From contig JAYZXX010000046.1 in NCBI GenBank assembly GCA_036140815.1, positions 1-60,551 of the forward strand: a stretch of DNA of 60,551 nt, written 5' to 3'. Positions within the stretch are counted from its first letter, which is position 1; each line of letters opens with the position of its first letter. Shown here piece by piece: positions 1,459 to 55,528 of the stretch. The notes under the pieces were generated by a model that saw only the letters and a program-made list of their open reading frames with translations, searched no databases and was not told where the DNA came from. This stretch comes from Bdellovibrionota bacterium (GTDB lineage Bacteria; Bdellovibrionota; Bdellovibrionia; Bdellovibrionales; UBA840). A program made the position numbers and the translations under genes.

Positions 1459-3921
1459 ATGTTTAAATTATTGTTTATCCAATCATTTATTGGTTTGGCG
1501 TTATCTTTCTTACTACTAAAGCCAATTCTGGCTGCTGACGACTCTAAGTGCTCTAAAAGCGCAGTAGAAGACTCAAAAGAAACTAAAGGTTTTAAATTAC
1601 CCAAAGAAAAGTTTATAGATGATAAGCTTGCGGCAAGAGCCGAGGTTTGGACTTTACAAGACTTAGTATCACCTGAAAAGAATATGTTAGCGGAGTCGCC
1701 ATTTCTAGCAATGAATGCCGCTCAAAGAATTTTAGCAATTGTTAACAATGCTGGCTTCGTTGAAAAAGACCTTTATGGTTCAGGTAAAACATTCGTTTCT
1801 AACTTTTTTCATACTCCAAGTAAGTGGAATGGTTTTAAAATGGTTGGTGGGCAAGAGTCCGGAACTTCCATGTTTGTTTCTCAACTAAAGCGAGCGGTAG
1901 CAGACGACGCAAACGTAATCTCTTTTGTAGGCCCTCATGGTTCAGGAAAGTCGGCGATCTTATCAGTAATAACTGGAGGGCTTAAAGCTGCTACTGAATT
2001 TGGTGGACAGAAATTCGCATATTACACATTTAGTTGGAAAAACCTCGACAAAATTGAAGCCCTTCGTTCAGGTCTAAAAAAGTTAGATGGAAAATACGTT
2101 GGAACGATGGAGAATGGATTGAATGAAAATCCATTGGTTTTGTTACCTAAAAATTATCAAAAAGCAATGCTCGATGGTGAGGTTAAAGAAGTAGTTCGTG
2201 ATATGGTAGGAACCGATCCAAATCCATTTTTGGAAACAAGTCCTCTTACCGAAAAAATTCGCGAAGAAATTCTTGCGCAAGAATTGATTGAACAAGGTAA
2301 AGAACTATCCGCTGAAAATATCATTGCTGCTCTTAATGAATATGTTGATGTGAAGCGAGTGGTTTTAAAAGATACGGCTATGCTCGATGCCCAAGGAAAA
2401 GACTGGAATCCAGATCAGCTTTTCATTAAGCAAAATATTGTTAAATCAATGAGTCTTGCAACAGATAATCCTATGCTTTATGAATACGGTATTGTTGCCA
2501 GAGCATCAGGAACTGCATTGTTCTTAGATGAAGTACTTCGTAATGAAAAAGATTTGCAAAACAAATGGTTAACTTTGTTCCAGGACCGCTACATTCAAAA
2601 TGGTAGCAGTATGAAAGTGCCTTTGGATATGTTAATTTTAACGGCAACCAATACGGCAAATATTCGTGAAATAAAACAAGATGAAACCGGTGATGCGGCA
2701 TTAGATCGGTACCAAAACATTCCTTTTAATTACGACACAAAACCTAATGTGATCGCGCAAACTCTAGCCTATATGAAAGGTGGGGAGTTGTTTGCTGAAA
2801 AACTGGGTGAAGATGCAACCGGTGAACTGGTTAGAGTATTTCCGAACTCATCAGGAAAAAGCGAAAGTATTTTAAATAAAATTTGGGTTTCTCCAGAAAT
2901 TGGTCAGAAAGCAGTTGTGCCTCATGGTCGTTATCGTCTTTGGATTGGTAACGGGAAAGACAAAATTTCTATCGCACCTCATGTTTGGGAGTTAATATCA
3001 GATGTTGTTTCTGCCAGTAGAATGTATACAAAAGTAAATGAAGCAAAAAATGAAGGATTGGCTGGGGATGTATTGACTCAAACCGTTTACACAGAGCCAG
3101 TTCAAAGAATTCGTTACTTTAATGGCGATGTTACTTTCGGTAGAGGCATTCATGATGAGCTTTATAGTGTCACTCAAAAAATGGGCGAAGGTGAGGCTGG
3201 AATTCCAACTCGTCAAGCCACTCGTTGGATCAACACCGCTCTATACATTGCTTCAAAGCCTGGATATAATAATACCTTAGACATGACAGCGCTTCGAGTT
3301 GCTTTAGATCAAATGGCGAATGACAATCGTGATGTAATTCCAGCGAAACTTTACCACGAGATTGTGGGATATTTTGAGGCTTTACTAAAAGTTATCTACA
3401 TTCCAAAGTTTAGAAAAGACTTTGAAACTGCTGTGATCGCAGATCCTGCTCACGAGAAGCGTACTTATCAAACCTTTCTAAAAATGGCCAAGGCTATGGA
3501 GGCAGGCGAGTCTACTTACAAAGATGCTTCCAATGAAGTTATGCCTGTGAATGAGAATTTTGTTAAAAAGGTAAAGAAAGCCTTCCTAACATATGAGGGT
3601 GAAGAGTTCACTTTAGATTTTATTGCTAGCTTTGCCTTAGATGGTATGATTTCTGGAGAAAAATCAGGTGAAGAACACCCGGGATTAATGGCCGCGATTC
3701 GACATTACCTTTCTTCAAAAGTGACCGAGGACCTTAATTTGCTGGCAGGTTACAAAGACCTTTCAAAGGGTGAGTCCATAGGTAACCAAGAAATTTTAAC
3801 TTCTTGGCAAAAATTCCAGCAAGTGATGATGGAACAATATGGCTACAATGAAAAAGCCCTTCAGTCTGTAGTAGAAAGAATTTATCAAGAAGCAGCTGAT
3901 TCTAGTACAGAAGTAGAATAA
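1459..3921 (+). CDS. PrkA/YeaG-family AAA+ serine protein kinase homolog, divergent, with N-terminal signal-peptide-like sequence
   Basis: ATG preceded by a GAGGGA RBS. Walker A is 'GPHGSGKS'. Colinear with E. coli YeaG landmarks as I remember them: 'NENPLVLLP' ~ 'NDHPFCLF'; 'ASGTALFLDEVLRNEKDLQNKWLTLFQDRYIQ' ~ 'ANQGIMEFVEMFKAPIKVLHPLLTATQEGNY'; 'LILTATNTANI..ALDRYQNIPFNY' ~ 'IILAHSNESEW..FLDRVYIVKVPY'. N-terminus is 'MFKLLFIQSFIGLALSFLLLKPILA|AD'. Confidence 0.75.
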   Translation: MFKLLFIQSFIGLALSFLLLKPILAADDSKCSKSAVEDSKETKGFKLPKEKFIDDKLAARAEVWTLQDLVSPEKNMLAESPFLAMNAAQRILAIVNNAGFVEKDLYGSGKTFVSNFFHTPSKWNGFKMVGGQESGTSMFVSQLKRAVADDANVISFVGPHGSGKSAILSVITGGLKAATEFGGQKFAYYTFSWKNLDKIEALRSGLKKLDGKYVGTMENGLNENPLVLLPKNYQKAMLDGEVKEVVRDMVGTDPNPFLETSPLTEKIREEILAQELIEQGKELSAENIIAALNEYVDVKRVVLKDTAMLDAQGKDWNPDQLFIKQNIVKSMSLATDNPMLYEYGIVARASGTALFLDEVLRNEKDLQNKWLTLFQDRYIQNGSSMKVPLDMLILTATNTANIREIKQDETGDAALDRYQNIPFNYDTKPNVIAQTLAYMKGGELFAEKLGEDATGELVRVFPNSSGKSESILNKIWVSPEIGQKAVVPHGRYRLWIGNGKDKISIAPHVWELISDVVSASRMYTKVNEAKNEGLAGDVLTQTVYTEPVQRIRYFNGDVTFGRGIHDELYSVTQKMGEGEAGIPTRQATRWINTALYIASKPGYNNTLDMTALRVALDQMANDNRDVIPAKLYHEIVGYFEALLKVIYIPKFRKDFETAVIADPAHEKRTYQTFLKMAKAMEAGESTYKDASNEVMPVNENFVKKVKKAFLTYEGEEFTLDFIASFALDGMISGEKSGEEHPGLMAAIRHYLSSKVTEDLNLLAGYKDLSKGESIGNQEILTSWQKFQQVMMEQYGYNEKALQSVVERIYQEAADSSTEVE

Positions 3922-3957
3922 TACGCTATTAGTTTTAAATTTCAGGGGGGATTACTT

Positions 3958-3982
3958 GGAGGCTTAGGGGGCCTCCGTTTTT
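3958..3982 (+). terminator. Hairpin plus T5 between the PrkA-like gene and the giant gene (possible partial terminator/attenuator)
   Basis: GGAGGC-ttagggg-GCCTCC stem-loop (3958-3976), then gTTTTT. The GGAGGA RBS and the ATG at 3993 follow immediately. Confidence 0.35.
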
Positions 3983-3992
3983 GGAGGAAGCT

Positions 3993-6900
3993 ATGCCCCG
4001 CATAATTCTATATATTGTTTTCATCTTAGATCTATCTATTTCTGTGTTTGCTAACAAAGAGTATCCAGTTAGTTACAATGGCGCTACCCCTTATATGTTA
4101 GTGGTTGCTGATGATTCACAAAATAGTGAGTTGAGCCCAGGCTTGTATCGTTTAGAAGACTCAATCAATAAACCTAAATTGGCATTAGAAGGTGATATTC
4201 TAATCAATCCCATTGAGGGGGTCTTACTAGGTAGGCTTGATACTGTTCATGAAAAGAACCGAAGATACGAAGCTGTCGTAGTAATTGATGGCAAAGTTAC
4301 TATTATATCTAGATACACAGATGCTTCTTCCCCTGAGAGTTTCCTTCAAATTGGAACTGGTGAAAATGAGGTTTTAGATCAATTAAATAAATCTTTTGTT
4401 AGGCTTCCACCAGTATTGAAGCACTCAGACATTGTAGTTATGAAAACTGAAATAGAGGGCGGTTATTTAATTTCAATGAAAGGTTTGATGGAGGATGGTT
4501 ATACGTTCTTCTTTAAAATAGGTCTAAGTGAATCTTCAGATAGTAAAATATATTTTGAGCAAAGGCCCATTCTTTTAGATAATAAGTTTTATAACAATTA
4601 TGAGCTAAATAACAGACTGATCAAGGAAGGCTTTATTTCAGATCGTCTAGTTCGCTATTTGAGCTTTCCTGAACACGAGGATGCGAAGCGAGTTCTAGAT
4701 CATAAAAGTATGATAGTAACTAACTACCAAAACCATGAGAATAATTGGGATGGTCAAACCGGCATTCCTCGGATTGATTTGAGAAGCTTAAAAATTGCAG
4801 ATTTGCCACCGCTTAAGGTTTCACTAGGCGATAATTTATTACAAATAGTGGACATTGAAAGAAATAAGGCTGAAATCGTAGCGATGATGAATCCCAAAGT
4901 ACCTTTGAAAAGTGCCTGGGTAGATACTGAAGGCGAAAGCGAAAGTCCGTACGTTCGAGCTGTTAATGAATTAAAAGCTGAAGTTTTCTTTGCTGAAAAA
5001 GTCTTACATTTTTATTATAATGGTCAGATTGCAGAAATATCCTCCCTAAGTCCAGAGTTGCCATTAGATCTCAGTGCTTCTTTTGTGTATAAATCTGGAA
5101 CTAGTATTTATCTAATCATATCGCAAAAGTTTGAGACTTCTGAAAGTACTAGTCTTGTAGAAATCAGTTTGCCCGTTGATTCAAGCGTTGGAAAGTTGCA
5201 ATATCTTATGTCTCTTAAGATTAGCCCTTATTTTTATTCCAGCGAAGAACTTAGTTATAGACATTTTGACGAAAAGTATTTTGACATCCTTTCGAAATCT
5301 GAAAATGAAAAAGATCGGGTTGTTTGGGAACAAGATCTAGACTATACAAAACCTCTTTTTGATTTGGTCAAGAGTGTGAAAAATGGAAAGGTGGAAAAGA
5401 AGTACCTTAAGCCCATTGAAGAAATTGTGATCACTCCATCATTGACATACAAAGTTTTCCAAGAAGAGGGCGTAGCTAGTGAGAATAGAGTTTCAGGGAT
5501 TTATAATGGAGAATCACTGCTTGTACAAGGTCAGCTTGTTGAAGTTAATATAGGAGATGAAAAGCTATTATCTATTTCTAAAAATACTAATTTTTATGAC
5601 CCTGTAGTTGATAAAATAGAAGAAAGGCAAGCAACTATATTTTTTGTGGATAAAAGCTTTCGAGGAGGGCAAAAATCTGTTGAAGTGAATTTGGTTGTGC
5701 CTGGAGTTGGTCAGAAACATTATAGACTAGGGGAAATTGATGGGTTTCCAGAGTCTAAATTTCATTCTGCGAGTGTAGTACTGCCACTTGTGAAAGATGA
5801 TAAGGCTGCTTATTTGCTCTTAGCTACAGAAATTGATGAAAAGCAACAGGCGGAGGTTTTAAGTTTCAAATTTGGAATCGATGCAGATGAGAGTGTTCCA
5901 CTGCCAAAGACATTTAAAGTCTTCAACTACATGGAAAAATCTATAGATTCAAGATTGCGCTTTGAAAAGTCTGGTGCTCCTTATTTACTAGAAGACTCCC
6001 AAGCCTCAGCTAGAAACATAAAGTTAATCGACTTAGCAGAGCCAGAGTCTAGAATTTTTCCTAATCGTAGTCAGTATAAGCATCTTAGCTTTACAGGAGT
6101 TTCCTCTGGAAGCGATGCAAGTGCTTGGGAAAACCCTTGGCTAATAACAAACCCAAATCATGATGAGAGCTTTGCTTTTTTAAAGAAATCTAGTTCCGAA
6201 AAGTACAAGTCACAGTTGTTTGATAATTTCTTTCAGCAATTAGAAGCAATTGCTAAAGGTGAAACCCCCGAAAAGCACCACATATTTATAGTACCCGATG
6301 CCTTGCAGACTTATTTATTTCACTCGATCTTAGCGAACTGGAAAGATAGCAAAAATTTTCTGAGTATGAGTAATAGAAAACTGCTTTTAAATGTAATCAA
6401 TGGATCTACGGTTACAAGTCAAAATGCTTTAATGGATCTATACAAAACTTTAGATAAAGAGAAAACAAAAGGTAACACGAGTATAATTTTAGGACAGTGG
6501 TCGGAAGTTCATAGCATGGGCAGGTTAAAAGTGGATCAAGGGGACAACAGCTTTGAACTTAGTTATGTATCTGATGACTTTAGTGAAGAAGAGGGGGAAC
6601 GAGATATCCTTAAAAACGAAGGAAATGAAAGTCACGTGGTATCTAAGAATCCTCATAGTTTGTACTTAATGGCAACTGAGGGCGAGAAACTTGCTTTGCA
6701 AGATTTTCCTAAGGCCAAGTCAACTAATAAAAACTCTTTGGTTATCCTGGCAACTGAATCTGAAATCAATGAATTTAAAAACGAGTCTTTTGAGGCTAAC
6801 TATGGTCTTTTGGAGCATTTCGAAATTCATCAACTCCCACGCCCAAGCTTAGAACATCAGTCAAAACTGTTTGAAAGGCTGTTTGAAGAGAAGCCGGATT

Positions 6901-9275
6901 TAAAGCTTCTTCGCTACAAGTTTGATGCAAAGAATATTTCAAGTACTGATCCTGTATTGCAAAAAAATTGGGAAGACTTGAGCTTTGATGAACGCGACCA
7001 TGTTAAAAAAATGATGTTTAACTATTACGTGCAGAGAATTAACGCCGTTGCCGATGCGAATGGCATAGCTCCTGTAATGGCATTGTCTAATATTGTGAAT
7101 GAATTTTATAGACAGTTGATTAGTAATTCAGACTTGCGTAGTGAAAGAACCATTACAACAGTTCTTATTGAAAGAATTTTGAGTGAAAAGTACGGAACAC
7201 CCTTAAATTTAGAAACTCTTCCGGAAAATGATCCGTTGAAAATTGTAAGTTCTCATCGTTTTTTAGATTTGATATTTAAGTCTAATCATGACGCCGACAT
7301 AGAAATTATTGAACAAATTAAAAAGACACGACTTGGTCAAACGAAGAAGGACCCTGCTTTATTGGTACCTTCTTCGATTATTTTGGTAGGACCAACGGGA
7401 ACTGGGAAGACAAGTCTTTGGTTAGCAATTCAAAAGGCGGTAGATAACAAAATCTATAATTTTGACAAAGACAATAACACGGAGGCGAGAGCTTTCTTTA
7501 TAAATTTGGAGAAAGTAATTCCTGATTATGGACCAAATACAAAAGCCTCAGACAGAGGCTCCAGTTTAACAATTACCGAATTAATAAAACATTTAGACAC
7601 CTTTTTAACCGGGCCTAATGGAGCAAGGGGAGATATTCTACTTGATGATGTAAGTAAAGCACATCCAAAAGTTTTAGGTAAACTTTTAGCTAAGCTTTAT
7701 GAAATTTTAGATGCTGAAGATGGTATCTATTATGCGAGAAGAAATGGACAGGTAGTGGAAGTGCCTGTGGGAAATTTGAATATAACCCTAACATTAAATC
7801 CTACAGAGAAGGAGTCGAAGCTTTCCGAGTATAGTAAGGCCCCTAAGGATATGACAATTCAAGAGTTAATTGTGGCAACATTAAATAGTGATGAGTTTTC
7901 TTTCGATAAATCACATTTGGCACGATTTTCCAGAATCATTGAGATCGATAAATTTTCGGAAAATGCAAAGCTCCCTGGAATGATTAGAGATCTAAAGTCT
8001 TCCATCGAGTCAGATTTTACGTCGCAAAACCGTCTGAGCCTTTTTACCAATGACTTTGTTTCAAGTATTGTTGAGTATTTCTCTGATATGGATGCTAGAA
8101 CATTTAAGTCCAGAGCAGTTCAAACGGCGATGGAAATCACTCAAAATGTTAATGGCCCATTAAAGATACTTGCTCCTTCAAAGGAGCAGAAGATGGAGAT
8201 GTTGCAACGAAGAGTTAAACTTGGCGGTGGTACAGTAGATATTGATAATTTCATGCAAAATTATACTCAGGTCTTAAAAATCGGAGAAAGTCAGGAAGCT
8301 AATTTCCGCTTACTTCAGGTAATGATTGATAGCTATCGTGTAATGATTTTTGACCAACTTTACAAGAAGACACTTTTGAACTTTTCTGGAGTGGGGGAGC
8401 ATTTCGCGCAGGAGATTGGCCAGCAAATCTTGTTGGCACTGGGGGAACATTTGGCTGAGAAGCCTCAAATTCCTTTGAGTGCTGTGCGACTGGACCCTTC
8501 ATTTTATGGTTTAAAACACGCAGATGACATAGAAAGCTTTTATCGCTTATTAGGTAGTATTGATGGACAGAGAAACAGTTCCGATAAATTTTATCCCTCA
8601 CCTGATTTCTTTAGGACGGAAGACCGCGATGATTTGTCTGTGTTAATTGGTGAAAAGAAGTCTAGCGGTGACAATAAAGAAGCCAATGTTTTTAGAGGCT
8701 TGAGTTCGGCACTTCGGCCACACCTTCAATCTTTACTTGAAAAAATGGTTTATCAAAATACCAGTTCCGATGCCAGTCTAGAGACTTGGCTAGAACGAAT
8801 TGATGAAGAAGCAGAGAGACGAATTGCCGTAAATAATACAGCTGAGGAGTTGCGATTGTTTTCTGATGTTGTATTTCAAGAACTTAGCTTGATGGTGCGA
8901 AAATTAATGAAGGTAGATATAGACTCTCGTAAATCTTACTCTGTCTATGAGCAGACAAGAATCTTTTTGTTTGTAATGGATAAAACAATCGCAGGACTAA
9001 ATTGGGATAAATATCTTGGCTTTAAGTTGGCAATATTAGAACAGTTTTCAAGTAATATGGTTGTAGGTTCTAGAGCCTCCGTTCAAGAGTATTTGTTCAA
9101 AAATCGTTTTTCTCTCTTATGGCCTAGGGCTCATAGTTCTTTGTTAAATTTAATGGAGAACTCTGAGTTGATTAAGGATCTTAATGTTGATTTTGACAAG
9201 AAAAGCTCTACTCGCTCTAGTCAGTTCTATAATAAATGTAGATTTTCCGCAGTTCCTAAGCAAGGGGGCCAGTAA
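3993..9275 (+). CDS. Giant (~1760 aa) hypothetical protein: signal-like N-terminus, ~1100 aa of unrecognised sequence, then a Clp-D2-like AAA+ ATPase module
   Basis: GGAGGA RBS 4 nt upstream of the ATG at 3993; the track start at 3981 is a TTG inside the T-run. N-terminus is 'MPRIILYIVFILDLSISVFA|NK'. Walker A 'LVGPTGTGKTS' (about nt 7389-7415). Walker B/sensor region 'ILLDDVSKAHPKVLGKLL', resembling ClpA/B D2 '[18 protein letters not shown]'. Its stop overlaps the next start (TAATG). Confidence 0.7.
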   Translation: MPRIILYIVFILDLSISVFANKEYPVSYNGATPYMLVVADDSQNSELSPGLYRLEDSINKPKLALEGDILINPIEGVLLGRLDTVHEKNRRYEAVVVIDGKVTIISRYTDASSPESFLQIGTGENEVLDQLNKSFVRLPPVLKHSDIVVMKTEIEGGYLISMKGLMEDGYTFFFKIGLSESSDSKIYFEQRPILLDNKFYNNYELNNRLIKEGFISDRLVRYLSFPEHEDAKRVLDHKSMIVTNYQNHENNWDGQTGIPRIDLRSLKIADLPPLKVSLGDNLLQIVDIERNKAEIVAMMNPKVPLKSAWVDTEGESESPYVRAVNELKAEVFFAEKVLHFYYNGQIAEISSLSPELPLDLSASFVYKSGTSIYLIISQKFETSESTSLVEISLPVDSSVGKLQYLMSLKISPYFYSSEELSYRHFDEKYFDILSKSENEKDRVVWEQDLDYTKPLFDLVKSVKNGKVEKKYLKPIEEIVITPSLTYKVFQEEGVASENRVSGIYNGESLLVQGQLVEVNIGDEKLLSISKNTNFYDPVVDKIEERQATIFFVDKSFRGGQKSVEVNLVVPGVGQKHYRLGEIDGFPESKFHSASVVLPLVKDDKAAYLLLATEIDEKQQAEVLSFKFGIDADESVPLPKTFKVFNYMEKSIDSRLRFEKSGAPYLLEDSQASARNIKLIDLAEPESRIFPNRSQYKHLSFTGVSSGSDASAWENPWLITNPNHDESFAFLKKSSSEKYKSQLFDNFFQQLEAIAKGETPEKHHIFIVPDALQTYLFHSILANWKDSKNFLSMSNRKLLLNVINGSTVTSQNALMDLYKTLDKEKTKGNTSIILGQWSEVHSMGRLKVDQGDNSFELSYVSDDFSEEEGERDILKNEGNESHVVSKNPHSLYLMATEGEKLALQDFPKAKSTNKNSLVILATESEINEFKNESFEANYGLLEHFEIHQLPRPSLEHQSKLFERLFEEKPDLKLLRYKFDAKNISSTDPVLQKNWEDLSFDERDHVKKMMFNYYVQRINAVADANGIAPVMALSNIVNEFYRQLISNSDLRSERTITTVLIERILSEKYGTPLNLETLPENDPLKIVSSHRFLDLIFKSNHDADIEIIEQIKKTRLGQTKKDPALLVPSSIILVGPTGTGKTSLWLAIQKAVDNKIYNFDKDNNTEARAFFINLEKVIPDYGPNTKASDRGSSLTITELIKHLDTFLTGPNGARGDILLDDVSKAHPKVLGKLLAKLYEILDAEDGIYYARRNGQVVEVPVGNLNITLTLNPTEKESKLSEYSKAPKDMTIQELIVATLNSDEFSFDKSHLARFSRIIEIDKFSENAKLPGMIRDLKSSIESDFTSQNRLSLFTNDFVSSIVEYFSDMDARTFKSRAVQTAMEITQNVNGPLKILAPSKEQKMEMLQRRVKLGGGTVDIDNFMQNYTQVLKIGESQEANFRLLQVMIDSYRVMIFDQLYKKTLLNFSGVGEHFAQEIGQQILLALGEHLAEKPQIPLSAVRLDPSFYGLKHADDIESFYRLLGSIDGQRNSSDKFYPSPDFFRTEDRDDLSVLIGEKKSSGDNKEANVFRGLSSALRPHLQSLLEKMVYQNTSSDASLETWLERIDEEAERRIAVNNTAEELRLFSDVVFQELSLMVRKLMKVDIDSRKSYSVYEQTRIFLFVMDKTIAGLNWDKYLGFKLAILEQFSSNMVVGSRASVQEYLFKNRFSLLWPRAHSSLLNLMENSELIKDLNVDFDKKSSTRSSQFYNKCRFSAVPKQGGQ

Positions 9276-12200
9276 TGAAGTTATTTTTATTTCTATTCCT
9301 TTTTACGGCCTTTGAGTTACTCGCAGCTGAGCCATCTAACAAAGTTACGGGAATAAAAAAACAAGAGTGTGCTAGCTCAGCAGTTCCTGTTTCAAAGCGT
9401 GGTAGATTGTATTGGGTAGACCATCACCGTGATGTTGATGAAATGGCAAAAATCAAAGAGGCTGCCGAAGAATTTACTGACATTGCTCACAAGTTAAATT
9501 TTAATATCCCCAAGCATGTCGCTACTTTTGCATCTAGCCAGGAGCTTGCGCTATTGTTAGCAAACGGAGCCCATCCTGCCCCTCATGCAATTGATGGGAG
9601 TTTGGTGTTTAAAGCTACTAGAGAATCTAGCTCTGTTTATGAGTTCGTAACCTCAGGTTGTCCACTTTGTCACTCTTATTTTCAGGACACAACTCCATGG
9701 ATTCAGCAACTTTCTATTTTTGCTCACGTTTTGGGGCATAATCATGTATCGCAAACTTCGACTTATGGAAAAATTCGAAAACCTGAAGATGCTGCTCGTT
9801 CTGCTTTTGAAATGGTTGAGTTGATGAACCAATTGAAATATCACCAAAATATTTCCTGGGAGGAGATTAGTCTTTTTTATCAAAAAATATATAGCATGAA
9901 GATAGACCAAGATTTGGTGGTTGGTTCCTATGACAGTGTTGATTCTTTAATCAAAGCTTTAGATAAAAAAAGAACCGAAGACGAAAAATTTAGTGGCAGC
10001 AGCTCAATGCTTCAGTCTATGACGGCGCTGAGTAAGACCAAGTTAAAGCCTTGGCAGCATGAAATGTTACGCATTTTCGAACAAAGGGAAGCTTGGCAAG
10101 GCTTTGCAACCATGACTAAAACAATGAATGAGGGCTTTGCCACTTTTTCTATGTTTATTATACCGAAGCATTCTAAGTACAATGAAATGAGGCACTGGAT
10201 TGACTATTCTAGTTTGTTGGCCAAGGTTCTAGGGACGAAAGAGAAAGTAAATCCAGCATCAGCTGTAAACAATCCGTACTGGTTGGGGCTTGAAGCATGG
10301 ATGAATTTATACAACAAATTCAAAAAGAACCATAAAGAGAAATATGAAACTGAATTTGATTTAGACGCAGCATTTGTTTCTTATGCGAGTAAAATCATTG
10401 AAACCCATTCAGATGCCAGCTTTCTACGTTTAGCATTAGACCAGCAATGGTTGATTGATAAAAAGCTAATCATGACTAGAGAACTGAAAGAAGACGATCC
10501 CCGTTACGATGCAAGTATAAAACAGGATCCAGATGATAAATTGATTCTTGTAGTGAGTAATGATCCTAGAAGGTTAATAAACAAGATAGCAAGGCAAGTA
10601 GGAAATCGTGGTGATAAGATGCCAAGGCTTAGGTTTATTGAGGATTCACATGCAGGAAAATATATCCTGTTAAGACAAGATTTAGTTCAGAACCATGGAA
10701 TTCCTTTAGAGATTTTTAGTGCGACGAAGAAGATTTACGACCTTGCAAGCACCTATAAAACAAGTGTAGCGGTAGATACAGCAATTCCTTCTTATTATAT
10801 TGCTGAAAAATTAGATGCACAAACCAAGGCGGAAATTAAAGACATACAAAAAAATGCCAAATGGTTTCCAAAGGATGGAGAGGTACATAAACTGAATGAG
10901 CCTATGCTGATCCCGGTGCGTATCATTGTTTCTCCAGATCGAAAAGTTGAAGTAAAATACTGGAGCACCAATGATAGCTTAGATAAAGAGCTGGAGGGCT
11001 TTCGAGAAACTTTAATGAGCTCAGTAGAATCTTACTACGAAGACTCTATTCTTGGGCTAAGCGAAAAGTACCAAGGAGTTATCGATTCAGACTTGAGACA
11101 GAAATTTGGAGCCGCAACTCAAGGTGCTGTTTCTAATACCGCTGCCATTTTGCCGACAGCACCTTCTGCTTCTTTAGCAGTTGCTGAATATCTTCGTTTT
11201 GTTGAAGAAAGAACGGTTCTCGCACTAAAAAGAGCTATGAACGGACAGGGAACAGGGGTGGCTACGAGTAAAGGTATGCAAGTTCGCGTTTTTCCTGAAA
11301 TAGCATTTTTTGGACTGGACCAAAGATACGCGCAAATACGAAGAGAAGCCTACAAGAAAGCTATTGTTGATGGTGAGGGTGTCGCTGATCCTTATGCAGA
11401 TGCTTTTACTGATTTAGTTAGTTTTGATGCTTGGCCTGGAAAGATTTTAAGAATTCCTGCAAAAAAACAAGGTGAGGGTAAAGGAGAAGGCGAAGGAGAA
11501 GGTCAAGGAAAAGGTAAGGGTAAAGGTGAAGGAGAGCCAAAAGAGGGCGAAGAGTCTGAAGAAGGTGAAGGTCCTGGCGGAGCAGGTGGATCTAATCCTG
11601 AATTTGTTGAAGTTCCTTGGAAAGATTGGATTGAATTAATTAATGATAAGCTTAAGCTAAGAAATATTCGAAAAACTTTAGGTAGAAGTCGTCAAGTTGC
11701 AACTCGTAGAGGTGGGTCTGTTACACTTAATAGGGATCCATTACGCGAAGATCGAGTGGTGGAAAAAGCAATGGGTTATGGACTTGCAGGCTTAGAGTTT
11801 GAATGGCAACAGAGGTTTGATAGCGAAGAAAGATTTTCGAAAATGACTGAAGAAGAAAAAATTATTTTTATGGATAAGGAGATCGATAAGCTTAGTTACC
11901 AGGAAATCGTGGAAGTTGGTCTACGCTATATGCCAGAAGGAGAATACGTAGCAAAGTCTAGCGTTGAGGTGATGCAGCCTGAGTTTGATGCGGTCATAGT
12001 AATTGCTGTTGATTTTAGTATCTCTATGAAGGGAGATCCTTTGCAGAGAGCCAAGACTGTTGCTATTAATTTAAAAGAGAAAATCAAATCAGAATACAAC
12101 AATGTGATCATTAGGTATGTTGTTTTTGATACCGAAGCAAAAGAGGTTACAGAGAAGCAGGCCTGGAGTGTTACTGGAGGCGGTGGAACCTCATATGAAA

Positions 12201-12511
12201 AAGGTGTCGGAAAAAGTATAGAAATATTGGAAGAATATCCAATGTCAAAATTCAATCGCTATGCTTATGTTTTTGGAGATAGTGGACAGCATTATACCCC
12301 TGAAGTTGCAAAAGCTTTTGAAAAAATAGTCGATATGACAGATGCCTCAGGTTATATAAAAACGGGAACGATGGGAGTTGATGCATTCGACCAAGGAATT
12401 GAAAATCTATTCCAAAGTAAAAAGAAGAAATTTTCAAAGTCTGAATGGACGGAAAAGGGGGGAACTTTGGTCGATTCAATCATAGATTTGTTTAAAGAGC
12501 CAGAGGAGTAG
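9275..12511 (+). CDS. Fusion protein: SpoVR/YcgB-like N-terminal domain plus DUF444/YeaH-like (vWA-type) C-terminal domain, with signal-like N-terminus
   Basis: SpoVR landmarks: 'LSIFAHVLGHNH', 'LKPWQHEMLRIFEQ', 'MNEGFATFSMF', 'NPYWLGLEAW'. DUF444 landmarks: a Gly/Glu/Lys tract 'GEGKGEGEGEGQGKGKGKGEGE..GPGGAGGS' followed by 'EFVEVPWKDWIELINDKLKLRNI', then the vWA/MIDAS-like 'AVIVIAVDFSISMKG..', 'VIIRYVVFDTEAKEV' and 'GGGGTSYEKG'. N-terminus is 'MKLFLFLFLFTAFELLA|AE'. Confidence 0.8.
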   Translation: MKLFLFLFLFTAFELLAAEPSNKVTGIKKQECASSAVPVSKRGRLYWVDHHRDVDEMAKIKEAAEEFTDIAHKLNFNIPKHVATFASSQELALLLANGAHPAPHAIDGSLVFKATRESSSVYEFVTSGCPLCHSYFQDTTPWIQQLSIFAHVLGHNHVSQTSTYGKIRKPEDAARSAFEMVELMNQLKYHQNISWEEISLFYQKIYSMKIDQDLVVGSYDSVDSLIKALDKKRTEDEKFSGSSSMLQSMTALSKTKLKPWQHEMLRIFEQREAWQGFATMTKTMNEGFATFSMFIIPKHSKYNEMRHWIDYSSLLAKVLGTKEKVNPASAVNNPYWLGLEAWMNLYNKFKKNHKEKYETEFDLDAAFVSYASKIIETHSDASFLRLALDQQWLIDKKLIMTRELKEDDPRYDASIKQDPDDKLILVVSNDPRRLINKIARQVGNRGDKMPRLRFIEDSHAGKYILLRQDLVQNHGIPLEIFSATKKIYDLASTYKTSVAVDTAIPSYYIAEKLDAQTKAEIKDIQKNAKWFPKDGEVHKLNEPMLIPVRIIVSPDRKVEVKYWSTNDSLDKELEGFRETLMSSVESYYEDSILGLSEKYQGVIDSDLRQKFGAATQGAVSNTAAILPTAPSASLAVAEYLRFVEERTVLALKRAMNGQGTGVATSKGMQVRVFPEIAFFGLDQRYAQIRREAYKKAIVDGEGVADPYADAFTDLVSFDAWPGKILRIPAKKQGEGKGEGEGEGQGKGKGKGEGEPKEGEESEEGEGPGGAGGSNPEFVEVPWKDWIELINDKLKLRNIRKTLGRSRQVATRRGGSVTLNRDPLREDRVVEKAMGYGLAGLEFEWQQRFDSEERFSKMTEEEKIIFMDKEIDKLSYQEIVEVGLRYMPEGEYVAKSSVEVMQPEFDAVIVIAVDFSISMKGDPLQRAKTVAINLKEKIKSEYNNVIIRYVVFDTEAKEVTEKQAWSVTGGGGTSYEKGVGKSIEILEEYPMSKFNRYAYVFGDSGQHYTPEVAKAFEKIVDMTDASGYIKTGTMGVDAFDQGIENLFQSKKKKFSKSEWTEKGGTLVDSIIDLFKEPEE

Positions 12512-12542
12512 AACTTCGGAGAACGGCTTTGTTAAAGTGAAA

Positions 12543-12569
12543 AGCAGCACGGCGGATGCTGCTTTTTTG
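12543..12569 (+). terminator. Rho-independent terminator of the PrkA-like operon (possibly bidirectional)
   Basis: GCAGCA-cggcgga-TGCTGC stem followed by TTTTTTG. It lies 30 nt downstream of the stop at 12511. A-rich on the other side. Confidence 0.7.
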
Positions 12570-53650: not shown

Positions 53651-55528
53651 TTAAATGTCTTCGTAGTGTTCACGCACAATGTGCATAGCTATTTTTAATG
53701 TCTCGCGTGGGACACTAGAAAATTTTGGAACTTGCAGATCAGGTTGTGTTTTCTTTAGTTGGTTGTAGATGAAAAGTTCTATGAATTTTTGCAGTCCTTC
53801 ACCAGCAAGGTTTTTGGACCTCAAAGCCATAATTTCAGTTACTATGTAGGTGATGGAATTGCCGGTAATCCTATCCGGATGGTTCACGATTTCTACTTTA
53901 GAAATTAGAGCCTTTTTATGTTTTTCAGATAGTTCTATATGTCCCATAAAGTTCAGGTAAAGATCACAAAATTCTACCATCAGCAAATAAGCTTGATCGG
54001 TCTGATACTGACTTGCTTTAACAGAGTATTCAGATTGAATGGCATCAAAAAGGCTATCTAGTTCAATCTCTTTATTGCTAACATATTGACTAGTTAAAAG
54101 GCGTATTAAGCTTCTTGCGTTGAAGAAAGGTGGTTTATTAATACCATCATCGACAGCTTCAATTTGCTTTGAAACCTTATGAGATTCTAGACGGAAAAAA
54201 GCTGCGTGTAGATTTTTAAGGTCTTTTTTATAGCCACGATGTTTAAATTTTTTAGCTACTTGATCCAAGCCTAGTTTACTTTCAAAAAGGCGTATCATCT
54301 CTTCATCAAAGCTTTTGTCAAAAAGTTTAATGTATTTATGGTCATCAAATTCTTTTAAGGCTTTTCTTTTACCAGTGTTTAAGAAATCAAGTATTTGACA
54401 GAAGCATTGGACAATTTTCCTGGCTTTGATTTTTTGTTCATTTAGATTTGTAGAATATCTTGATACATCATCATATCGATATTCATCGTGGCGAATGCCA
54501 AACTGACGAATGCTACCGTAATCCAATATGCCGATGTCCATCAACATATTGTCTCCATCCCAATCAAACCATGCGAAAATATATTCGCTTTCTAACTTTG
54601 CAACAAACTTTGCGTAAGACTCACTGATTTCTTTTACTACTTTGTTGTAGTTTGCGGAGTCGGTTCTACAGCTAACAAACTTTTTATTTTGGACCTGTCT
54701 ATCAATGTAGTAGTCAAAAGCTCTTTTTAAAGCATTGTGATTATTTTGTTTTAAAAAGGAAAAAAGGTGAGCAGGGCGAAGTAAATTTTCTCCAGCTCTT
54801 ACACCGATTCCCACGCCTGGACCAGTTTCTAATACAAGTAAAGTTCTCTCTGTAGGAACTCCCTTTTTATGAAAAATTTCAGACATGATGGCAGTAGCAT
54901 AAAGTTCATCAATTTCCGCTAAGCCACAACCGTAACCAAATTCTTCACTTCCAGTTTGAAGGTTTTTTCCTGCCTCAATGATTCCCGGAGCTAAAGCGGT
55001 TACGCCAGTTCCGCGACTAGAGACATCCCAGATTTTACCGTTCTTTTTTACGACTCCATTCCAAATGCTTCTACCATCGCCAGAGGTTTTACCTTGTTTA
55101 TTCGGATGCTGTAATTGTAAATATCGGGTAGCCATATAGAGATTAGGCTTAATGCTTTCTTCTGCGTAGCTTATGCCATTTTCAAGATCATATTCATTAA
55201 TGATGACTAAACCAAAAGTTTCAACGAGAGTGTCTTTTAAATCTTTTGTCATTTTGTGGGGATGATTTTTAGGAAGTAGCCCCATTTCAATGGCCAGATC
55301 ATAATTAAAATAAGCAACCTCAGCCTCTTCCACGACTCGCGCTTGATAGCCAATATAACCTTCAGGAACTTGAGTTTGCCATGGATGCGTTCCATCCAAT
55401 TGAGAAAACTCTTTGTACTTCTCTGGAAATTTTGCTTTTTGACCAACTAGCTTTAGATGAGTTTGTTTTTTACCCTCAGCCTTTTGATCTTTAAACTTAA
55501 TTTTTGCTGCTCTCGGTTCTCGTTTCAT
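53651..55528 (-). CDS. SelO/YdiU-family pseudokinase-fold protein (putative protein AMPylase), long 625-aa form
   Basis: 'QGKTSGDGRSIWNG', 'VSSRGTGVTALAPG', 'YATAIMSEIFHKKGVPTERTL', 'RPAHLFSF', 'DGDNMLMDIGILDYGSIRQFG'. These are colinear with E. coli SelO 'GDGRA', 'LKGAGLTPYSR', 'SEAMHYLGIPTTRAL' and 'NTDNMSILGLTIDYGPFGF'. An extra ~200-aa helical C-terminal region follows. Confidence 0.65.
   Translation of the reverse strand: MKREPRAAKIKFKDQKAEGKKQTHLKLVGQKAKFPEKYKEFSQLDGTHPWQTQVPEGYIGYQARVVEEAEVAYFNYDLAIEMGLLPKNHPHKMTKDLKDTLVETFGLVIINEYDLENGISYAEESIKPNLYMATRYLQLQHPNKQGKTSGDGRSIWNGVVKKNGKIWDVSSRGTGVTALAPGIIEAGKNLQTGSEEFGYGCGLAEIDELYATAIMSEIFHKKGVPTERTLLVLETGPGVGIGVRAGENLLRPAHLFSFLKQNNHNALKRAFDYYIDRQVQNKKFVSCRTDSANYNKVVKEISESYAKFVAKLESEYIFAWFDWDGDNMLMDIGILDYGSIRQFGIRHDEYRYDDVSRYSTNLNEQKIKARKIVQCFCQILDFLNTGKRKALKEFDDHKYIKLFDKSFDEEMIRLFESKLGLDQVAKKFKHRGYKKDLKNLHAAFFRLESHKVSKQIEAVDDGINKPPFFNARSLIRLLTSQYVSNKEIELDSLFDAIQSEYSVKASQYQTDQAYLLMVEFCDLYLNFMGHIELSEKHKKALISKVEIVNHPDRITGNSITYIVTEIMALRSKNLAGEGLQKFIELFIYNQLKKTQPDLQVPKFSSVPRETLKIAMHIVREHYEDI

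Follow-up and report, generated by a model that had tools for sequence, protein, structure and literature searches.

A predicted exported AAA+/vWA module related to PrkA, SpoVR and DUF444 in Bdellovibrionota

Results

Three co-oriented genes encode relatives of PrkA, SpoVR and DUF444

We analysed a 60,551-nucleotide stretch of DNA from a Bdellovibrionota bacterium (contig JAYZXX010000046.1), referred to below as the window, in which positions 1459-12511 carry three co-oriented open reading frames (ORFs), A, B and C, all on the + strand in the ORF list. A encodes a PrkA-like protein, C a fusion of SpoVR with DUF444, a von Willebrand factor A (vWA) family, and B, lying between them, a giant protein with AAA+ regions; all three are predicted to carry signal peptides (Table 1). 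An earlier note made from the letters of this DNA had read the locus as a rewired PrkA/DUF444/SpoVR module, and the homologies that it proposed were borne out, the Pfam gathering scores being passed for each of these families.

Protein A matched the PrkA C-terminal domain (PF06798) with 38.5 bits (cut-off 25) over profile positions 29-253 of 255, and AAA_PrkA (PF08298) with 29.1 bits (cut-off 25) over profile positions 207-309 of 358 only, together with generic AAA+ families. Among seven orthologues of A, AAA_PrkA was matched in five and the PrkA C-terminal domain in six, and the profile of the A family matched a solved 'Serine protein kinase' structure (9xip, also 9xiq and 9xir) at E = 7e-18. 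The Walker A motif GPHGSGKS (G158...K164) and the Walker B motif LDE (D357, E358) are present, and K164, D357, E358, the sensor residue N398 and R417 are invariant across the seven orthologues; the EGExGI..R..W motif is also kept in the PrkA C-terminal domain. A further match, to bpMoxR, was weak (17 bits; cut-off 27). Judged by these profile matches, A is homologous to PrkA. As the earlier note had remarked, it is longer than usual for such a protein (820 aa (amino acids), against 644 aa for E. coli YeaG), and the alignment of the two starts with YeaG residue 13 opposite A residue 58.

Protein C matched SpoVR (PF04293; 59.5 bits, cut-off 27) at aa 254-406, as did 11 of 11 orthologues, and DUF444 (PF04285) with 74.6 bits (cut-off 27). 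Both domains were found in all 11 members of the family, and a word-based search with C returned seven clusters, every one of them a SpoVR-DUF444 fusion, so the claim that the two are joined in one 1078-aa polypeptide was well founded. In the SpoVR-homologous region, residues E123, H151, G154, H155, D213, W260, T281, E286 and G287 are invariant and common to YcgB. A linker rich in Gly, Glu and Lys precedes the DUF444/vWA region, whose metal-ion-dependent adhesion site (MIDAS), made up of D913, S915, S917, GGT 970-972 (T972) and D1002, is likewise invariant and common to YeaH. With SpoVR ahead of DUF444, C inverts the order of the canonical genes and is therefore not a simple read-through fusion. 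A sequence search of the PDB with C gave no meaningful match. On the strength of the Pfam and family-profile alignments, C is homologous to both SpoVR and DUF444. None of A, B and C approached an NCBIfam equivalog threshold, which makes them remote relatives of the canonical families.

The junctions between the genes fit a single operon, as had been suggested. The stop codon of B overlaps the start of C in the sequence TAATG, and the terminator-like hairpin after C folds at -14.9 kcal/mol (z = -2.6). B probably starts at ATG 3993 rather than TTG 3981, since a GGAGG precedes this ATG by 5 nt; TTG 3981 begins two bases upstream of this GGAGG and overlaps its first G. In the gap between A and B the earlier note had seen only a weak hairpin, with a single terminator after the last gene. 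The terminator after C stands and is the better of the two, but the A-B hairpin (stem of 8-9 bp, GC-rich, U5) is also terminator-like by scan, although its fold energy is no better than that of shuffled sequence (z = -0.16). This hairpin is unchanged in L006, a syntenic Tara Oceans contig (relatives of the locus are numbered L001 to L011 throughout). Its 5' arm holds a GGAGG, a second GGAGG after the U-run is the Shine-Dalgarno sequence of B, and the whole element at 3957-3987 is identical in L006. The element may act in transcription attenuation or translation control, with more A than B and C being produced as a result.

Table 1 Features of the module and of its surroundings in the window.
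Feature	Coordinates	Strand	Basis
Tandem heptamer repeat GATTTTA/TTTTAGA, ~5 copies	1086..1124		
Gene A, predicted exported PrkA-like protein, 820 aa, with AAA+ domain and PrkA C-terminal domain	1459..3921	+	Pfam
Predicted signal peptide of A, aa 1-25, MFKLLFIQSFIGLALSFLLLKPILA↓AD	1459..1533	+	Heuristic scan; N-termini of relatives
Terminator-like hairpin and U-run between A and B, possible attenuator	3957..3982	+	Stem of 9 pairs (5 GC), loop of 3, TTTTT
Shine-Dalgarno sequence GGAGG of B	3983..3987	+	5 nt upstream of ATG 3993
Gene B, predicted exported giant protein, 1760 aa from ATG 3993 (ORF opens at TTG 3981)	3993..9275	+	Orthologues of 1750-2330 aa between A and C in the related loci
Predicted signal peptide of B, aa 1-20, ...SVFA↓NKE	3993..4052	+	40-member alignment
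N-terminal all-beta region of B, tandem beta-propeller-like, aa ~21-690	4053..6062	+	AlphaFold2 model, Foldseek
D1-like AAA+ module of B without Walker A, aa ~762-947	6276..6833	+	AlphaFold2 model (pLDDT 81), Foldseek
D2 AAA+ module of B with intact ATPase motifs, aa ~1127-1430	7371..8282	+	Pfam AAA_5, motifs
Predicted C-terminal helical domain of B, aa ~1434-1752, ending in conserved Cys1749	8292..9248	+	AlphaFold2 secondary structure
Gene C, predicted exported SpoVR-DUF444 (vWA) fusion, 1078 aa	9275..12511	+	Pfam
Predicted signal peptide of C, aa 1-17, MKLFLFLFLFTAFELLA↓AE, followed by invariant Cys32	9275..9325	+	Heuristic scan
SpoVR-homologous region of C, aa ~69-406	9479..10492	+	Family hidden Markov model against YcgB 33-346, E = 2e-25
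DUF444/vWA region of C, aa 732-1059	11468..12451	+	Family hidden Markov model against YeaH 81-422, E = 1e-41
Terminator-like hairpin after C	12539..12567	+	Stem of 11 pairs, then T-run
CcoN-CcoO cbb3 oxidase fusion, 712 aa	21699..23837	-	COX1 and FixO in one protein
Cys-rich ORF, 2659 aa	43196..51175	+	
Protein of 625 aa with weak SelO match	53651..55528	-	32 bits
The arrow marks the predicted cleavage site.

Protein B is predicted to combine tandem beta-propellers with a double AAA+ region

The sole Pfam match of protein B was AAA_5 at aa 1133-1241; AAA_2, which the earlier note had named for a Pfam check, was not matched. Two AlphaFold2 (AF2) models were built from alignments of 40-41 diverse family sequences. 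The N-terminal ~700 aa were modelled as nearly all strands, with a predicted local distance difference test (pLDDT) of 79.7 and a predicted template modelling score (pTM) of 0.58. The best Foldseek matches of this model were the tandem propellers of DDB1 and Utp (E = 3.5e-7, probability 0.99) with a template modelling (TM) score of ~0.15, and since the TM-scores are low, only a fold class is claimed for this region. The model of the C-terminal 1045 aa (pLDDT 81, pTM 0.70) matched double-ring chains of ClpC1, ClpA, ClpB and Hsp104 with E = 5e-14 and a probability of 1.0 over ~700 aligned columns. The D1-like module has no GxxGxGK in its sequence. D2 carries the Walker A motif GPTGTGKT and the Walker B motif LLDD, and across 41 sequences that share 20-28% identity its K, DD, N and R residues never vary. 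The earlier note had seen here a giant extra ORF with its own AAA+ module. The extra gene is real, and the models suggest more than that: tandem beta-propellers, a Clp/Hsp100-like double AAA+ region with degenerate D1 and intact D2, and a helical domain of ~330 aa.

A sequence search of the PDB with B gave ClpX matches at the level of the Walker A motif only. That B might be a duplicated PrkA was considered and rejected: an hhalign comparison of the A family with the B family aligned the P-loop alone (probability 34%).

Word-based searches with B, as a single sequence or an 8-sequence profile, found only the window's own protein and a relative with 81% identity. A phmmer search with the C-terminal 1045 aa against 1.84 billion representatives returned 172 matches at E <= 1e-3, of which 140 lay at E <= 1e-30, with lengths mostly of 1750-2330 aa. 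Match numbers fall off sharply, so the family is well bounded; its size of ~140 refers to clusters at 50% identity.

The three proteins carry predicted signal peptides and are depleted in cysteine

Signal peptides were sought with a heuristic of our own, which scans for n-, h- and c-regions and for the -3/-1 residues, in 26 module proteins and 33 other ORFs of the window. In every locus A, B and C open with an n-region that is short and basic, continue with 10-17 hydrophobic, uncharged aa and then show a small-x-small site. The signal-peptide-like N-termini that had been noticed earlier in the window (ILA↓AD, VFA↓NK, LLA↓AE) are thus kept in every relative examined. The N-terminus of B read from ATG 3993, MPRIILYIVFILDLSISVFA↓NKE, is kept as protein in the 81%-identical L006, and N-termini equivalent to that of A occur in L001, L002, L003, L006, L010 and L011. 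Sites in relatives include ...SAWA↓AGP, ...PASA↓GT and ...AASA↓AL for A, B and C of L001, and ...RVFA↓HD for C of L002. Scored in this way, those window proteins that are clearly cytoplasmic came out as non-secretory, and the N-termini of E. coli YeaG, YeaH and YcgB are hydrophilic (maximum 8-residue Kyte-Doolittle values of 0.6, -0.2 and 1.3). The presequence of A is an add-on to the PrkA-like part, because the YeaG alignment begins only at A residue 58. Lipoprotein and Tat signals were rejected as candidates, there being no lipobox Cys after the h-region and no twin-arginine motif.

The B family gives the most detailed picture. Among 40 aligned members the presequences are mostly 18-30 aa long, 36 have Ala at position -1, 37 have A, V, S, T or C at position -3, and position -2 is bulky and variable; after the site follows a conserved mature N-terminus, N-T/R-E-E...PY.VV. 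Small residues at -3 and -1 constitute the signal-peptidase-I rule. A hydrophobic N-terminus was present in 94 of the 114 full-length B representatives, and the exceptions are mostly visibly truncated or mis-started gene calls. We infer that A, B and C bear cleavable Sec-type signal peptides, export and cleavage being predicted for all three.

Two other accounts of these N-termini were weighed. They could be uncleaved anchors that hold a cytoplasmic PrkA, AAA+ and SpoVR-vWA set at the inner face of the membrane, as the earlier note had allowed. The paradox of ATPases outside the cytoplasm would then disappear, h-regions can be long, as in window A and B with 17 aa, and in some sequences, such as A of L003, several Lys/Arg follow the hydrophobic stretch. 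Many h-regions, however, measure 10-13 aa and are too short for a bilayer, the positive charge sits on the N-terminal side and indicates an N-in, C-out orientation, and the small -3/-1 residues of B are a signal peptidase I signature. With the cysteine depletion described below, these observations make anchoring very improbable. Alternatively, the signal peptides could be artefacts of wrong start codons, the real proteins starting downstream and staying in the cytoplasm; automatic gene calling did put the start of B downstream of its signal peptide in L006/P0009 (1726 aa), and in the window entry P0008 (1743 aa) it fell partly within that peptide. We find this scarcely credible, because all loci and no fewer than 94 of 114 B representatives keep the hydrophobic segments, the ATG of window B has its GGAGG in place, and the conserved mature N-terminus (A↓N-T/R-E-E...PY.VV) is lost with downstream starts.

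Cysteine depletion is typical of exported proteins. A has one Cys in 820 aa, B one in 1760 aa and C three in 1078 aa, a total of 5 in 3658 aa, compared with 1.9% Cys in the other window proteins (an estimated ~1.1% without one Cys-rich outlier) and with 6, 2 and 6 Cys in E. coli YeaG, YeaH and YcgB, respectively. The single Cys of A, C31, lies just after the signal peptide and is conserved in the family. C32 of C is invariant in 11 of 11 sequences, and C1749 of B is shared by all eight locus orthologues and by 38 of 41 representatives. All of these retained, conserved Cys lie in terminal tails. The pattern agrees with an oxidising compartment, with intermolecular disulfides as a hypothesis only.

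The gene order recurs in Bdellovibrionota

The earlier note had proposed a search of other genomes for the same gene order, and A-B-C recurs wherever the flank suffices, at identities of only 21-25% and with typical lengths of about 810 aa for A, 1750-2170 aa for B and about 1050-1110 aa for C. It is kept in L001 (A 809, B 2137 and C 1093 aa), L002 (811, 2169 and 1019 aa), L003 (815, 2140 and 1079 aa), L006 (820, 1726 as called, and 1082 aa), L010 from Bdellovibrionaceae (ORFs of 861, 1904 and 1113 aa) and L011 from Bacteriovoracaceae (818, 1803 and 1057 aa). Four partial loci (L004, L005, L008 and, from Bdellovibrionales, L009) are consistent with it. The window has ~38% GC and a Tara Oceans relative that is 94% identical, and its source is on this basis probably a marine bacterium within the Bdellovibrionota that resembles Halobacteriovorax. 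By BLASTP, orthologues and window proteins share 23-25% identity, and the GC content of the loci ranges over 37-61%.

A genome scan with the B profile, covering one genome per species and pattern-limited, gave true matches in Bdellovibrionota metagenome-assembled genomes (MAGs) only. All members of the B family with a named source come from Bacteriovoracaceae, Halobacteriovoraceae or Bdellovibrionales MAGs and are labelled 'hypothetical protein'. Viral contigs scanned with the B profile yielded no relatives, and PADLOC gave no meaningful match, only weak ones at the level of the P-loop. Within the reach of this pattern-limited scan, the module appears restricted to Bdellovibrionota so far.

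The surroundings of the module differ between relatives. In L001 and L002 a fourth gene follows C (L001:13585-17424, L002:13360-17181) and encodes a ~1270-aa protein in which a pair of P-loop AAA+ modules is joined by a GYVG pore loop, an M41 HEAGH motif and a predicted signal peptide. It is without FtsH's transmembrane pair and looks like an exported Hsp100-FtsH hybrid protease; no homologue of it was found in the window. Directly upstream of A in the same two loci lies a phage-integrase-family gene (L001:1-495, L002:217-750), which hints at a mobile-island location; no tRNA adjoins these integrase-flanked loci, and the window has no integrase. Downstream of C, L009:8248-9111 encodes a signal-peptide protein with the look of a trypsin-like serine protease (IVNG...AAHC motifs in the translation), and L008:5287-7092 a 601-aa signal-peptide protein of unassigned family. 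L003:14076-16874 and L004:8180-10978 hold LexA-like, RecA_N-like 214-aa and 436-aa genes downstream, which together resemble an imuA-imuB SOS mutagenesis cassette.

An integrase beside some copies raises the idea of a mobile AAA+/vWA 'ternary' conflict system, for defence or attack, that is directed at phages or competitors and not at prey, with the propeller protein as sensor or scaffold. The theme does match the MoxR-vWA ternary systems, which have FtsH-type and beta-propeller versions (PMC7159879), and the weak bpMoxR match of A (17 bits) points the same way. The module of the window nevertheless lies amid ordinary chromosomal genes; the PADLOC and viral-contig scans were negative, and no variable effector domains were seen in A, B or C. 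The described ternary systems are cytoplasmic, and the paper is without PrkA, SpoVR and signal peptides (PMC7159879). We consider a conflict system improbable.

Other features of the window

The flanks of the module are ordinary chromosomal genes for a hybrid histidine kinase, an M23 peptidase, a cbb3 oxidase, a P-type ATPase and a sigma-54 activator. The next gene past the module, on the opposite strand, encodes an M23/Csd3-type peptidoglycan peptidase. Rfam and tRNA scans of the window gave no match. The heptamer repeat listed in Table 1 sits inside a 646-nt ORF-free region upstream of A and may be regulatory or slippage-prone. Further away, FixG-like and P-type ATPase assembly genes lie near the CcoN-CcoO fusion. 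The Cys-rich ORF, with 144 Cys (5.4%), a hydrophobic N-terminal segment and no Pfam match, may encode a giant surface or secreted protein, and SelO, which the 625-aa protein matches weakly, is a protein adenylyltransferase pseudokinase.

Discussion

A putative exported remodelling machine

We regard it as highly probable that the three genes constitute a conserved exported module of Bdellovibrionota. The reading that we favour overall, and in which our confidence is evenly balanced, is one operon for a three-protein machine, exported and specific to Bdellovibrionota, that remodels proteins by AAA+ and vWA components. It would have arisen from the widespread cytoplasmic PrkA-YeaH(DUF444)-SpoVR module, altered in three ways. 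SpoVR and the vWA protein would have been fused, with their order reversed; the giant B, with its tandem beta-propellers, double AAA+ region (dead D1, live D2) and helical domain, would have been inserted; and each subunit would have gained a cleavable Sec signal peptide.

Since every subunit has a predicted Sec signal peptide, A, B and C would be translocated unfolded through the inner membrane of the predator by Sec and then cleaved. Folding and assembly would follow outside the cytoplasm of the predator, and the single conserved tail Cys of each may link the proteins. By analogy with AAA+/vWA chaperone pairs (PMC7159879), the MIDAS site of the vWA domain would grip a peptide of the target protein. 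The beta-propellers of B would supply further binding surfaces, and the PrkA-like and B ATPases would spend ATP to remodel or release the target. Judging by the alignments, purifying selection on their ATPase motifs is strict. No ATP is present in the periplasm of a bacterium, and because the motifs are strictly kept all the same, the module may act in or on prey, its most likely workplace being a prey cell that has been invaded or is under attack (the bdelloplast or the cytoplasm of the prey) and its fuel prey ATP. We infer delivery into prey from a distribution limited to predators and from the requirement for ATP; complex formation, location, ATP source and substrates are likewise inferred. 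Work on prey with prey ATP is a tentative proposal, to which we give somewhat less than an even chance. The fullest form of the idea would make this the first extracytoplasmic AAA+ machine of bacteria, exported by Sec, possibly disulfide-linked, delivered to prey, run on prey ATP and remodelling, unfolding or disabling prey proteins, with an exported Hsp100-FtsH-like protease added in some lineages; taken as a whole this is doubtful.

The main rival to a role in prey is a function in the envelope or cyst of the predator itself. The module would then be exported as a periplasmic stress, cell-wall or cyst-maturation system, and its nucleotide sites would be structural or regulatory, or fed by scarce extracytoplasmic nucleotide. 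In its favour, the predicted signal peptides and the scarcity of cysteine put the proteins outside the cytoplasm. Such a system would echo the role of SpoVR/CbgA in the spore cortex, and SpoVR homologues are tied to cortex formation (as cited in PMC5430801). The peptidoglycan peptidase next to the module is of the M23/Csd3 type, and no dedicated secretion genes were seen in the locus. On the other hand, the M23 neighbour is not kept in distant loci, the predator's own periplasm is without an ATP source, and the confinement to a predatory phylum would go unexplained. The invariant Walker A Lys, Walker B acids, sensor Asn and Arg at 20-28% identity moreover argue for hydrolysis. We therefore judge an envelope function rather unlikely.

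Several observations weigh against the exported machine and its use on prey. The export call comes from a heuristic, and the predatory lifestyle of the window organism is taken from its relatives. The locus has no evident route across the predator's outer membrane or into prey, and proteins of 90-200 kDa would somehow have to gain access to ATP. For B, the Foldseek TM-scores are low both in the propeller region (0.15) and in the AAA+ region (0.27-0.49; 0.43-0.49 relative to the target). No GYVG pore loop was found in the sequence of B, and threading unfoldase activity is therefore unsupported for this protein. The mechanism is argued by analogy, because the activity of canonical PrkA, as a kinase or a protease, is itself disputed (PMC13001217).

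Each module combines a vWA partner with two or three ATPases of different kinds, all behind predicted signal peptides and with their catalytic motifs intact. This combination forces one of two conclusions, either of which would be new. Either an ATP-supplied extracytoplasmic compartment exists for these bacteria, the prey cell being the obvious candidate, or ring ATPases can be useful without ATP turnover. Through the module, the manipulation of prey from within by Bdellovibrio-like predators would become open to concrete tests. The gene fusion also fixes a physical association of SpoVR with the vWA protein, which bears on the biochemical role of PrkA, YeaH and SpoVR.

Comparison with known systems

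The closest known system is the PrkA/YeaG-YhbH/YeaH-SpoVR/YcgB module, which serves in stress and sporulation and consists of yeaGH plus ycgB in E. coli and of prkA-yhbH plus spoVR in Bacillus. A has AAA_PrkA and PrkA C-terminal domains, C keeps the SpoVR core, including the NEG[FW]AT motif (E286, G287), and a DUF444 vWA core with intact MIDAS, and the genes are predicted to be co-transcribed. The identity is only ~22-31%, and local. Canonical YeaG, YeaH and YcgB have no signal peptides, whereas A, B and C all have predicted ones. Canonical PrkA/YeaG is a cytoplasmic protein of ~630-690 aa, shorter than A. Canonical DUF444 is a stand-alone protein of ~370-430 aa, here the fusion's C-terminal portion, where its best NCBIfam score was 71.6 bits (cut-off 388). 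Canonical SpoVR/YcgB is a stand-alone, cytoplasmic protein of ~470-510 aa, here the fusion's N-terminal portion behind a predicted signal peptide, scoring 25.9 bits with NF008737 (cut-off 679). The canonical operon has separate prkA, DUF444 and spoVR genes (or yeaGH with an unlinked ycgB), whereas here a prkA-like gene is followed by the inserted 1760-aa beta-propeller/double-AAA+ gene and the reversed fusion, and the proteins are cysteine-depleted. Bdellovibrio bacteriovorus HD100 has a canonical operon, bd0228-bd0231, with separate prkA, unknown and spoVR genes (PMC5430801), so the present module would be an additional paralogous set within the phylum and not a replacement. A Ralstonia jumbo-phage paper (PMC8504454) reportedly contains the terms PrkA, SpoVR and von Willebrand, which hint at a canonical module on a phage.

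The MoxR-vWA ternary conflict systems of Kaur, Burroughs, Iyer and Aravind (2020, eLife) include an FtsH type, with two AAA+ modules of which the first is inactive, and a beta-propeller type (PMC7159879). The resemblance is one of theme only. They share with the present module the combination of AAA+ chaperone, vWA co-chaperone and large third component, the themes of a beta-propeller and of a double AAA+ region with an inactive first module, the FtsH/M41-type fourth protein of L001/L002, and some integrase-adjacent loci. The AAA+ partner here is of the PrkA type and probably not a MoxR (bpMoxR 17 bits, cut-off 27), and the propellers appear on B and not, as in subsystem 4 of the ternary systems, on the vWA protein. 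A SpoVR domain is present, all components are predicted to be exported, and no variable effector domains were detected in A, B or C with Pfam. The ternary-system paper mentions neither PrkA, SpoVR nor signal peptides (PMC7159879).

In its model, the C-terminal half of B superposes on the two tandem AAA+ modules of ClpC1, ClpA and ClpB, and by sequence its Walker A region is ClpX/ClpA-like. D1 differs from that of Clp/Hsp100 proteins in lacking a Walker A motif, and neither a GYVG pore loop nor a ClpP-binding loop is evident. B adds the 700-aa beta-propeller N-terminus, the 330-aa helical C-terminus and the predicted signal peptide. Sequence membership in the Clp family fails, with 24 bits for the ClpA NCBIfam model (cut-off 1350) and no match to AAA_2.

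ATP-dependent folds outside the cytosol have precedents that are unrelated to A, B and C in sequence or operon context. Eukaryotic torsinA is one, torsin working in the endoplasmic reticulum, which is taken to import ATP. Lig E is another, an ATP-dependent enzyme with a signal peptide that is reported to be targeted to the periplasm (bioRxiv 10.64898/2026.03.22.713542); it works as a single-turnover ligase and is no ring ATPase. In the literature searched we found no signal-peptide-bearing PrkA, SpoVR or DUF444 protein, and no periplasmic, secreted, exported or extracytoplasmic AAA+ protein of bacteria. To our knowledge, a strictly cytoplasmic location is ascribed to AAA+ ATPases and to the PrkA-YeaH-SpoVR module, the periplasm being without ATP, and we know of no other ATP-driven machines outside the cell in bacteria. 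The homology to PrkA, YeaH and SpoVR is itself of a known kind; what is categorically unusual here is the placing of ring ATPases behind predicted signal peptides.

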